Below, in pieces: positions 35,615 through 38,856 of a stretch of 50,309 nucleotides of DNA. This DNA is from Shigella phage Sfin-3. The DNA lies in sequence record MN296515. One strand, 5' to 3'. Position 1 is the first letter of the stretch. Each line of letters begins with the position of its first letter. Position numbers and translations under genes: made by a program. A model generated the notes under the pieces. It had not been told where the DNA came from. It ran no database searches and saw only the letters and a list, made by a program, of their open reading frames with translations.

Positions 35615-36328
35615 ATGAAAGACTTTAATGATATCGAAACCATTGATTTTGCTGAAACTGGTTGCTCATTTACTCGCGAAGCAATAGCATCAGGCGGTTA
35701 TTATCAGGCATTGAAAACGCCAACCTGCAAAGAGATTTCAGGACGTCGATACAAGGGAACCAATACACCTGACGCAGTTCGTGATTTATGGTCAACCCCA
35801 CGCGAGGTTATCGCATATCTTGAGGGGCGCTACGGAAAATACGATCTCGACGCTGCGGCAAGCGAAGAAAATAAAGTTTGCGAGAAGTTTTATTCTCAGG
35901 AAACAAACTGCTTAAAACGTTGGTGGGGTAAAAATAAGCACGTATGGTTAAATCCTCCTTACAGTCGACCTGATATATTCGTCAAGAAGGCGATCGAGCA
36001 AATGGAGCACAACAATCAGATTGATATTCTGTTGCCTGCCGATAATTCCACAGCGTGGTTTACTGAGGCGCGACAGAACGCGGCTGAAATCATCTGGATT
36101 GAAGCTGATTTGACTGAGGATATTGACGGCAATGAATACGCACGATCCGGTCGTCTGGCTTTCATATCAGGTGAAACTGGAAAAGCCGTAGACGGCAACA
36201 ACAAAGGTTCGGTTATTTTTATTATGCGCGAACTTAAAGAAGGTGAGACGCAACAGACTCACTACATCCCAATCACAAGCATTTGCCCTTCGGTGAAAAA
36301 CAAGCGCGCAAAAGTGAGGAAAGTATGA
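35615..36328 (+). CDS. dam: DNA N6-adenine methyltransferase (phage Dam family)
   Basis: 237 aa; ...WSTPREV...YDLDAAAS...WLNPPYS (NPPY catalytic motif) typical of phage N6A-methylase family. Confidence 0.8.
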   Translation: MKDFNDIETIDFAETGCSFTREAIASGGYYQALKTPTCKEISGRRYKGTNTPDAVRDLWSTPREVIAYLEGRYGKYDLDAAASEENKVCEKFYSQETNCLKRWWGKNKHVWLNPPYSRPDIFVKKAIEQMEHNNQIDILLPADNSTAWFTEARQNAAEIIWIEADLTEDIDGNEYARSGRLAFISGETGKAVDGNNKGSVIFIMRELKEGETQQTHYIPITSICPSVKNKRAKVRKV

Positions 36329-36576
36329 TGAACGATAAAATGATTCCGGTTAAGTTAACTGATCAAGGTTTATGGCTGCTTTATCGAGCTACCTGCTGCG
36401 AAATTATGGAGCGAAACGGATTGACTCAGGATGTTATTGGTTGCGATCTGTGGGAGTTCACTAGTTCTCTTGATATGTCTTTCGATGAGATAAAAAATGA
36501 ACACATAGAGAATTGGCCTTCAATCATACAGAAAGACGTGGAAGAACTTAAAGCTTATACAATCGTAAAGCACTAA
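36325..36576 (+). CDS. hypothetical protein (83 aa)
   Basis: ATG 36325 overlaps dam stop (ATGA), RBS GTGAGGAAAG; TAA stop inside palindrome 36568-36582. Confidence 0.55.
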   Translation: MMNDKMIPVKLTDQGLWLLYRATCCEIMERNGLTQDVIGCDLWEFTSSLDMSFDEIKNEHIENWPSIIQKDVEELKAYTIVKH

Positions 36577-36610
36577 TTGCTAAAACTACCCGGCGAAAGT
36601 CGGGTATAGT
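36568..36610 (+). promoter_or_regulatory. composite promoter module (AAGCA-ctaat-TGCTA, 22 nt, -10 TATAGT)
   Basis: Palindrome 36568-36582; hairpin 36588-36605; -10 36605-36610; ATG 36643. Confidence 0.55.
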
Positions 36611-36642
36611 TATTTCATCAAAACGAAATGAGGAATAAGAAG

Positions 36643-36852
36643 ATGGCACGCATTAACGCAAACTTTTTCAATATCGCTCAGCAGTCTGCAAAAATGGCTG
36701 TTCATATCACTGACAAGCAAGGCGGCAATTTTGATTGGGATATTGCTATGAACTTCCTTAAAATGGCTTACTATCGCTGCTCAGTCAAAGATGTTGAGTA
36801 TTTTATTGAAAGCGTGGAGAAATTAACCAATGTTGATAAAAAAACAAGGTAA
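36643..36852 (+). CDS. hypothetical protein (69 aa)
   Basis: ATG 36643 with GAGGAATAAGAAG RBS after module 36568-36610. Confidence 0.55.
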   Translation: MARINANFFNIAQQSAKMAVHITDKQGGNFDWDIAMNFLKMAYYRCSVKDVEYFIESVEKLTNVDKKTR

Positions 36853-37102
36853 ACGCGAGGTTTGGGAGCACGCGAAGGAGTGCGGGATCTCAGGTGATAT
36901 AGCACTAATAGCCAAATATTTCGATATAAAGGATGTTAGCATTATCTCAAATGGCAAGATTTCATTTATGGAAGATATGCCGAGAAAAATGCATAGAGTG
37001 CCAGCCACCCCATCACTTGAATTTTATCGTGAAGAAGGAAAGAGAATTGAGCGAGAACGAAAAACAGCAAAGAACAATAAGTCTTCCAGGATTAAACATT
37101 AA
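36830..37102 (+). CDS. hypothetical protein (90 aa)
   Basis: Track ORF; overlaps both neighbours; see finding on possible recoding/overlap. Confidence 0.4.
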   Translation: MLIKKQGKREVWEHAKECGISGDIALIAKYFDIKDVSIISNGKISFMEDMPRKMHRVPATPSLEFYREEGKRIERERKTAKNNKSSRIKH

Positions 37103-37334
37103 CGAAGACGATTACCAGACCATATGGATCGGAAAGAAGCAGGTTAAGAAAATACCTTTCTCTGATTGGTTGCCTCCTGACTTCGCAAACGTGCTGTGTA
37201 CCATAGGGATCGATCAGGAGTTGCATATAGGTTATTACTCACCTGGTAGAAACAGTATGATGCTTGAGGTTGACGGAAAGCTGGTTGAGTTTAAATCGTC
37301 AGATCTAGGATTCTGGTTAAAGGCTGTGGCATGA
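37047..37334 (+). CDS. hypothetical protein (putative, TTG start)
   Basis: Protein-like frame (…WIGKKQVKKIPFSDWLPPDF…) opens after GAAGGAAAGAGA RBS; start codon uncertain; overlaps previous ORF by 56 nt. Confidence 0.3.
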   Translation: MSENEKQQRTISLPGLNINEDDYQTIWIGKKQVKKIPFSDWLPPDFANVLCTIGIDQELHIGYYSPGRNSMMLEVDGKLVEFKSSDLGFWLKAVA

Positions 37335-37412
37335 ATCTTTATTTTGCTGTAGTATTAACACCGCTAATTTCATTTTCAGTAATGTATTTCATTATCATGT
37401 AAGGATTAAAAT

Positions 37413-38564
37413 ATGTCACAAGCTAAAATCACTACCGAGCAACTTATCGAAGAGCGCATGAGCGGCCTTACACTTCGCGAGATTGCGGAAAAGTACGGTA
37501 TGCACATCCGCACTGTTGAAGCTCGTCACGCAAAACTTGCAAAGGAAGGTCACTTCCACGGTAACGAGCATGTTGCTAAGAACGTACCGGAAGGATTCAT
37601 GGTAAAAGGCACATCAACGATGATTCGCGGCGATGGGACCGAGGTAGTGCGATGGGTTAAGACCGATCAGGACCGTGAGAAGATTGCGGCAATGATGGAA
37701 GCAGCGCGTATTGCATTCTGTGAAGACTTGCCGCGAGCAAAACCAACTGAGCTACTCACATCGCAAGGGCTTACAACCGCTATTGGCAAGCTGGCACTCT
37801 ACCCGGTGTTCGATCTTCACATTGGCGCGCTTGCTCACAAGCATGAATGCGGAGAGAACTACTCTACAGACGTAGCGGAAAAAGTGCTGAATGACTTCTT
37901 TAACTACGCGATCGATATTGCCCCGAACGCAGAGAAGGCTGTTCTGTTAATCGGCGGCGACTTCCTTCACTCAGACGGTCTTGATGCTGTTACCCCGGCA
38001 AGCGGTCACGTTCTGGATCAGGATTCACGATATGCGAAATTGGTGCATGTGGCTATTCGATCGGTGCGACGAGCTATCGACAAAATGCTGACTAAACACA
38101 AAGAGGTCGAAGTTCAGGTTATCGAAGGGAACCACGACCAGGCCGGAATGATTTGGCTACGCGCTGCAATGGCTGCATACTATGAGGACGAGCCGCGAGT
38201 ATTCGTTGACGTTAGTCCTATGATTCTGCATAAGACCCGCTGGGGAAATACCTTGTTGGGATACACTCACGGTCACACGATGAAAAAGGCAGACACGCGA
38301 CTTGCAGCGATGGCGGCAGACTTCCGTGCAGACTTCGGTGAAAGCAAATACGTGTATACTCACAGTGGACACTGGCACCATCAAACAATCACAGAACACT
38401 CGTTAGGTATTGATGAGGTTCACGGGCAGTTAGGCGCGAAAGATGCATACGCCGCGCGAGGCGGGTGGCGCTCATATCGCCAGGCGGCGGTAATCGTTTA
38501 CGATAAACAGTTTGGTGAAATCGGTCGATTCATCTATCGTCCAGAAATGACAGGATCGCACTAA
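37413..38564 (+). CDS. HTH domain fused to calcineurin-like metallophosphoesterase
   Basis: 383 aa; N-terminal LTLREIAEKYGMHIRTVE (sigma-region-4/LuxR-like HTH); then DLH, GDFLHSDG, GNHD, GHTM, GHWHH phosphoesterase motifs. Confidence 0.65.
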   Translation: MSQAKITTEQLIEERMSGLTLREIAEKYGMHIRTVEARHAKLAKEGHFHGNEHVAKNVPEGFMVKGTSTMIRGDGTEVVRWVKTDQDREKIAAMMEAARIAFCEDLPRAKPTELLTSQGLTTAIGKLALYPVFDLHIGALAHKHECGENYSTDVAEKVLNDFFNYAIDIAPNAEKAVLLIGGDFLHSDGLDAVTPASGHVLDQDSRYAKLVHVAIRSVRRAIDKMLTKHKEVEVQVIEGNHDQAGMIWLRAAMAAYYEDEPRVFVDVSPMILHKTRWGNTLLGYTHGHTMKKADTRLAAMAADFRADFGESKYVYTHSGHWHHQTITEHSLGIDEVHGQLGAKDAYAARGGWRSYRQAAVIVYDKQFGEIGRFIYRPEMTGSH

Positions 38565-38804: not shown

Positions 38805-38826
38805 CAATATCATTCATAACCTTACG

Positions 38827-38856
38827 GGCTGGCATGGTTTACATGCTGGCCTTTTT
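38827..38856 (+). terminator. rho-independent terminator before lysis cassette
   Basis: 10-bp stem GGCUGGCAUG/CAUGCUGGCC (two G-U pairs), loop guuua, then T5. Confidence 0.55.

Follow-up and report, generated by a model that had tools for sequence, protein, structure and literature searches.

The DNA analyzed here, referred to below as the window, is a stretch of 50,309 nucleotides from Shigella phage Sfin-3 (sequence record MN296515). Between positions 36830 and 37334 it raises the question of why two reading frames on the same strand, each of which resembles a genuine coding sequence, overlap by about 56 nucleotides. A preliminary description had offered three answers: overlapping genes with an unusual start, a +1 recoding event, or a sequencing frameshift. 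Comparative data support the first of these options and refute both of the others. Based on the conservation of this region across related phages, we propose that the two frames are very probably separate coding genes, here termed A and B, that are carried on one mRNA and translated independently of each other. Gene B would start at the TTG at 37047 by means of a GAAGGA Shine-Dalgarno motif, and the overlap would be the outcome of remodeling of the junction between the two genes.

Two small genes and their genomic setting

The window belongs to a T1-like coliphage (Tunavirus). Its region from 36500 to 37500 is 98.5% identical to that of Escherichia phage vB_EcoS_Chapo and 91-96% identical to many other Tunavirus genomes (T1-like, Drexlerviridae), with 58 records spanning at least 80% of it. 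It forms part of a rightward block that encodes, in order, a helicase, a VRR-NUC protein, a Dam methyltransferase (35615-36328) and the product of a small gene (36325-36576); beyond these lie a terminator-like hairpin (36587-36606), three more small genes and the gene for an SbcD-like exonuclease. A further terminator-like hairpin lies at 38826-38852. A search for a promoter-like site between genes A and B yielded none, except for a weak 9/12 match at 36735-36764.

Upstream of gene A is a homolog of T1 orf18 (36643..36852, + strand; 69 aa; PHROG 2180, phrog_2180 E = 1.7e-23), which is present as a 210-nt CDS in the annotations of Chapo, SA12KD, SH2 and T1. The last 23 nt of this gene (36830-36852) are shared with the 5' end of gene A; an overlap of this size ranks second among the same-strand overlaps in the SA12KD annotation, and in relatives the equivalent overlap is 8-32 nt. 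Downstream of gene B lies the gene for the SbcD/Mre11-like DNA repair exonuclease (37413..38564, + strand; phrog_704 E = 5e-157). The product of this gene displays an HTH-like N-terminal segment (residues ~10-46) with weak matches to HTH_23 and Sigma70_r4_2, and a weak metallophosphatase match C-terminal to it. A separate observation concerns a 38-nt segment (36569-36606) that spans the stop codon of the small gene at 36325-36576 and the terminator-like hairpin TACCCGGCGAAAGTCGGGTA. This segment recurs with ~97% identity in ~190 Klebsiella (Webervirus-type) phage genomes, inside or bordering an annotated cytosine DNA methylase gene and with flanks that cannot be aligned by megablast. It may represent a conserved terminator or regulatory element common to several Drexlerviridae genera.

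Gene A (36830..37102, + strand) encodes a 90-aa protein from an ATG start to the TAA at 37100, and is the homolog of CPTT1_062 of T1. A Shine-Dalgarno-like GGAG, read from the sequence, is located at 36816..36819 (+ strand), 10 nt 5' of the start, and the GenBank record of T1 marks an RBS for CPTT1_062 at the equivalent position. The protein belongs to PHROG 2817 (phrog_2817 E = 9.9e-32), with residues 3-75 aligning to positions 2-75 of the 84 in the profile HMM. It consists of a conserved core (residues 1-61) followed by a variable basic C-terminal tail; in the Tunavirus alignment it is near-invariant up to the sequence EEGKRIERERK, beyond which it is variable yet always basic. Homologs of gene A form 26 clusters. 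When the concatenated A and B proteins were used in a tblastn search against 50,697 phage records, 838 records were matched, mostly through the A core alone (residues ~5-62). In other Drexlerviridae A occurs by itself, as a basic-tailed protein of ~82 aa that is not followed by B, and such a tail is also seen in homologs that do not overlap another gene (e.g. KKGAKK or KEQKKYYKM). The AF2 model of A is poor (pLDDT 66, pTM 0.30), and a Foldseek search with it against the PDB returned no matches. A Pfam assignment to DUF7334 was rejected, as the match of A (14.5 bits, E = 0.03) is under the gathering threshold of 27 bits. Weak matches to DUF7334 are nevertheless obtained with 24 of the 26 A homologs (best E = 1e-4), and a distant relationship between the two is possible.

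Gene B (37047..37334, + strand) encodes a 95-aa protein that is the homolog of T1 orf17 (CPTT1_063) and a member of PHROG 4596 (phrog_4596 E = 1.3e-37). Residues 12-94 align to positions 2-84 of the 85 in the profile HMM, which leaves residues 1-11 as an N-terminal extension outside the profile. Profile searches recovered homologs of B in 104 clusters; nearly all are proteins that stand alone, with 80-96 aa, and contigs of 40-53 kb encode many of them. In the Tunavirus alignment the initial segment, (L)SENEKQQRTI, is variable, and conservation extends from SLPGLNIN onward. The AF2 model of B is good (overall pLDDT 83.6), with values below 50 for residues 1-10, ~59 for residues 11-20 and 85-94 for the remainder; residues 1-10 are accordingly predicted to be disordered.

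The modeled part of B from residue 21 to 95 (37107-37331) is a small all-beta domain with seven strands (pLDDT about 90), and its invariant residues include Y23, W41, P43, W90 and L91. Foldseek searches with this model found no significant match in the PDB (best E = 0.27), and in BFVD they recovered family members and weak DUF551-like matches and nothing else. Viral DUF551 proteins account for many weak matches, with TM about 0.4-0.5 and E about 0.05-0.4, which amount to a likeness at the level of the fold. DUF551 proteins too carry a W..LP-type motif. Neither B nor 63 members of its family gave any Pfam match, DUF551 included, at E <= 1. The possibility that B is a methyl-CpG-binding domain was also rejected: the PDB profile matches have E-values of only 0.048 and 0.36, and there is no MBD among the 50 best Foldseek matches in the PDB. 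What makes the marginal match at E = 0.048 worth noting is solely the presence of a Dam methylase gene ~0.7 kb upstream.

Codon-position constraint in the two frames

The ORF coordinates place the overlap of the two genes at 37047..37102 (+ strand), with gene B in the +1 frame relative to gene A. The two protein-like frames reported earlier, the ORF at 36830-37102 and a frame-0 ORF ending at 37334, are indeed present and share ~56 nt. This stretch encodes the basic tail of A (residues 73-90) together with the N-terminal extension of B and the start of its LPGLN motif. In SA12KD, a relative with a complete annotation, no other CDSs on the same strand overlap this far, the next longest overlaps being 23, 17 and 11 nt.

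To count variable sites by codon position, the window was aligned with 16 Tunavirus loci, including those of T1, pSf-2, Shfl1, ADB-2, SH2 and SA12KD; Sfin-6 was left out of the counts because it has a frame-disrupting deletion. In the part that belongs to gene A alone (36853-37046), variable sites read in frame A are distributed 1/3/30 over the three codon positions (chi-square p = 9e-11), and when the same stretch is read in frame B it is the second codon position that varies most. In the part that belongs to gene B alone (37103-37331), the counts in frame B are 11/8/39 (p = 3e-7). These counts from 16 genomes bear out the earlier remark that either frame resembles noise in the part where its partner appears genuine. 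Within the overlap, the segment 37080-37099 has frame-B counts of 0/0/4, such that only third positions of frame B vary, and the segment 37047-37079 has frame-A counts of 5/3/5, with periodicity absent in both frames. The latter segment also has the highest share of variable sites, 39%, against 17.5% in the A-only part and 25% in the B-only part. Based on the codon-position counts, the A frame is therefore constrained up to ~37046 and the B frame from ~37080, and the 33 nt between these points are weakly constrained in both frames. Outside the overlap each frame is under purifying selection of its own, as is characteristic of overlapping genes that are initiated independently.

The predicted start of gene B and alternative readings

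The predicted start codon of gene B is the TTG at 37047..37049 (+ strand). It is preceded by a GAAGGA Shine-Dalgarno motif (37034..37039, + strand) that lies within the last quarter of gene A, where it forms the codons GAA GGA, and the AAGGA portion of which (37035-37039) is placed 7 nt upstream of the TTG. The TTG is unchanged in all 16 Tunavirus genomes, as is the entire block from 37037 to 37050; within the Shine-Dalgarno motif position 37036 alone varies (A/G). The GenBank record of T1 marks an RBS for gene B at this GAAGGA, and independent gene callers predicted B at a length of 95 aa in 13 of 15 homolog clusters. The invariance of the block from the Shine-Dalgarno motif to the TTG is only marginally beyond that expected from the constraint on gene A alone (P about 0.06), and we therefore place weight on two diverged relatives and on the absence of alternative starts. 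In these relatives, L054 (identity to the window 87% for A and 56% for B) and L050 (61% for A and about 46-47% for B), the motif is kept at the homologous site as GAAGGA or GAAGGC, and both have a 56-nt overlap with a TTG after GAAGG at the exactly homologous position. In L050 there is a stop 6 codons upstream, which leaves no canonical start except the TTG ahead of LPGL. Gene B would hence start at a codon of its own, preceded by a Shine-Dalgarno motif within the 5-10 nt expected of independently initiated genes, and both are conserved in relatives.

Counting against this start is the fact that TTG is a weak start codon. The preliminary description had held that the frame-0 ORF lacks a good ATG and that TTG 37047, with its RBS, is the best start. 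The TTG, the RBS and the coordinates match the comparative data as well as the annotations of T1 and SA12KD. What it overlooked is that frame 0 is open from 36930 and contains an ATG at 36933, followed by TTG 37017, GTG 37029 and TTG 37047; the part upstream of TTG 37047, however, is devoid of frame-0 constraint. Gene B could in principle start elsewhere, and public annotations do disagree on this point, but we consider a start at ATG 36933, TTG 37170, ATA 37077 or ATT 37098 to be unlikely. The ORF from ATG 36933, annotated in LeonhardEuler, would encode 133 aa. Frame 0 is open to this in-frame ATG in all 16 Tunavirus genomes, and stops therefore do not exclude a longer product in them. Nonetheless, the 38 residues it would add show no frame-0 constraint (3/30/1 over 36933-37046), the AAGG that precedes the ATG abuts it at a spacing unusable for a Shine-Dalgarno motif, and the frame is closed by stops in L048, L049 and L050. 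The internal TTG at 37170, from which a 54-aa product is annotated in SH2 and pSf-2, would remove the invariant family residues Y23, I36, P37, D40 and W41. At 37074..37079 (+ strand), 2-3 codons before LPGL and where relatives have the ATG of B, the window has the frame-B codons ACA ATA, and the Tunavirus alleles of this site encode I, T, A or V; there is therefore no start codon at this site in Tunavirus. The near-cognate ATA at 37077 in particular is ACA, GCA or GTA in most Tunavirus genomes. Finally, ATT 37098 overlaps the TAA of gene A and could be envisaged as a site of termination-reinitiation, but its use would remove the family-wide conserved LPGL, which is constrained in frame B from 37080.

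Readings that deny the existence of two independent genes fare worse. Programmed +1 (or -2) frameshifting from A into frame 0, which would generate an A-B fusion alone or alongside A, is very improbable in our assessment. Its attractions are that both frames are open over 36930-37102, and that codons capable of +1 re-pairing are present in the A frame, namely AAA-A at 36986 and TTT-T at 37022, which all 17 sequences have, and AAA-N at 37061, which 14 of them have. The first two, however, are conserved because residues K53 and F65 of A are conserved, and the A-run at 37061 is not itself conserved (AAA-T in T1). In frame 0 before 37047 the second codon position is the most variable one, and in L048, L049 and L050 stops close the B frame 4-8 codons before the B start, which removes the upstream shift candidates; among the codons scanned that would permit +1 re-pairing, none is conserved in a stretch that stays open in every relative. 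No stop or known slow codon adjoins any of the candidate sites, RNA folding of 37000-37120 indicates no stimulatory structure (z = -0.09), and an Rfam scan of 36300-37700 gave no match. Moreover, B of relatives is in the -1 frame to A (ATGA) or is separated from it by a spacer, and no fusion is conserved. Given that the relative frame of A and B differs by clade (-1, spacer or +1) and that A also occurs without B, there is no ancestral or conserved A-B fusion. Thus, the +1 recoding event entertained earlier is rejected, as A and B are separate genes of two PHROG families in differing relative frames, with A found without B and with no conserved signals. Classical -1 slippage is irrelevant, as B is not in the -1 frame, and a programmed -1 frameshift was likewise rejected in view of the +1 frame of B, the z of -0.09 and the lack of an Rfam frameshift element. 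A fusion in pSf-2, suggested by a note in the SA12KD record according to which both genes resemble pSf2_08, was also rejected, as pSf2_08 is gene A alone.

The proposal that an indel from sequencing or assembly broke a single gene into two frames has virtually no probability. Comparison with related phages had been put forward as the check for a single continuous ORF, and the tblastn search with concatenated A and B did produce a single-piece match, but only in Jk06 and Sfin-6 and through local indels in both. In Jk06 the stop of A is followed by B in frame through an indel beside the ATG, whereas its close relative phiKP26 has two genes. In Sfin-6 a 1-nt deletion inside B, downstream of the overlap, breaks B relative to the other aligned Tunavirus genomes and leaves no natural fused ORF. 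Against these stand the same frames and lengths, and hence the same split, in at least 16 independently sequenced Tunavirus genomes, together with several metagenomic contigs, and the membership of A and B in different families (PHROG 2817 and 4596). The record anomalies are located at about 1120-1180 in Sfin-6 (L005, MN393473.1) and about 1040-1050 in Jk06 (L004, DQ121662.1), and phiKP26 (L006) has an ambiguous base at codon 83 of B. All three are likely to be sequencing errors or pseudogenes in those records. A different kind of proposal accepts both genes but regards the overlap as more than a by-product: based on its geometry, ribosomes translating A could gate the TTG and Shine-Dalgarno motif of B at a fixed low B:A ratio, or low-level +1 slippage at AAA-A or TTT-T could add a minor A-B fusion. 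We regard this as very improbable; if gating or slippage did operate, the repeated relocation of the B start within the tail of A (4, 29, 32, 41 and 56 nt) would represent tuning of the B:A ratio.

Proposed junction remodeling and comparison with known arrangements

Two separate genes with an independent start for B remain the preferred interpretation, and the junctions of relatives suggest how their overlap could have arisen. In the Rogunavirinae, the gene pairs kp_57/kp_58 of phiKP26, gp15/gp14 of phiEB49 and gp7/gp6 of Sd1 are homologous to A and B and occur in the same order, and in phiEB49, Sd1 and LF82-40 they are followed by an annotated exonuclease gene, as in the window. The B proteins of this group are 24-39% identical to that of the window in alignment. 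Unlike in the window, the ATG of B directly precedes LPGL, with neither a TTG nor a long overlap: in phiKP26, phiEB49 and LF82-40 the adjacent genes share the 4 nt of an ATGA, with B in the -1 frame, and the B protein begins M-N-LPGL; in Sd1 a 2-nt spacer separates the genes. The A proteins of the ATGA-type phages are 10-13 residues shorter than that of the window. A second set, comprising the Tunavirinae-like L035, L047, L048, L049 (BrunoManser bas12) and L055, resembles the window in that the start of B overlaps the tail of A (ending in SRLKR) in the +1 frame. In these the overlap is 29-41 nt and B starts with an ATG 2-7 codons before LPGL; in the window the corresponding values are 56 nt and 12 codons, with a TTG as the start. 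In two of these phages, L048 and L049, stops close the B frame 4-8 codons before the ATG.

In light of these architectures, we propose that the ATG of B, which in relatives sits 2-3 codons before LPGL, either as part of ATGA or 29-41 nt inside the tail of A, was lost in the T1 clade, where the site now reads ACA ATA, and that initiation of B moved ~10 codons upstream to the TTG at 37047. There it would depend on the Shine-Dalgarno motif embedded in gene A. The 56-nt overlap would thus exist because B starts at a TTG inside gene A, and the overlapped DNA would encode the least constrained parts of both proteins, the basic C-terminal tail of A and the putatively disordered N-terminal extension of B. 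A basic tail is also found in A homologs that lack an overlap and LPGL in B homologs that lack one, which suggests that the terminal SRLKR of A was probably imposed by the LPGLN codons of B. Conversely, the E/K/Q-rich extension of B may be a passenger of the AAR/GAR-rich tail of A. The weak TTG, along with occlusion by ribosomes translating A, could plausibly keep the output of B below that of A. The series from a spacer to ATGA, to a 29-41 nt overlap with an ATG and to a 56-nt overlap with a TTG would then be a tidy small example of start-codon migration, a process that creates overprinted and weakly constrained protein tails.

The biological weight of this overlap is slight, as it is a routine case of two same-strand genes that overlap in a compact phage genome, the second with a start other than ATG; the practical value of its analysis lies in annotation. 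Public records omit gene A, truncate B with the loss of invariant residues, or extend it. Gene A is missing from the RefSeq record of T1 (NC_005833.1, 40261-40456) and from the annotation of Chapo (MT682715.1, 41075-41270), and inconsistencies also affect NC_047828.1 (40330-40494), KP085586.1 (3434-3598) and MZ501092 (P0003), the annotations concerned being the 54-aa B of SH2 and pSf-2 and the 133-aa B of LeonhardEuler. A literature search on overlapping genes in T1 and Drexlerviridae found nothing relevant.

Among known translational arrangements, the likeness to +1 frameshifting of the prfB type is one of geometry only, in that the second ORF is shifted by +1 relative to the first, within which a Shine-Dalgarno-like motif is located. 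The differences are that here the motif is at start-codon spacing from a conserved TTG and not 3 nt from a shift codon, that no in-frame stop or slow codon is present at a shift site, and that no fused product is conserved in relatives. A frameshift of this type was thus rejected, there being neither a conserved shift site beside a stop or slow codon nor a conserved trans-frame fusion. The counterparts of the arrangement in the window are instead found in the annotations of other Tunavirus genomes, across which the identity of the A/B region ranges from 88.6% (T1) to 99.6% (Chapo). T1 (AY216660.1; CPTT1_062, WBY66054.1, and CPTT1_063, AAP49982.1) and SA12KD (OL960582.1; SA12KD_36 and SA12KD_37) have orthologous CDSs of 273 nt and 288 nt with the same 56-nt overlap. 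CPTT1_063 corresponds to orf17 in the T1 genome publication of 2004, which the T1 GenBank record cites (PMID 14972552). The overlap with its TTG start is therefore already known from the curated T1 record and from SA12KD; in the updated T1 record both genes are annotated, each with an RBS, and nothing substantive differs from the window.
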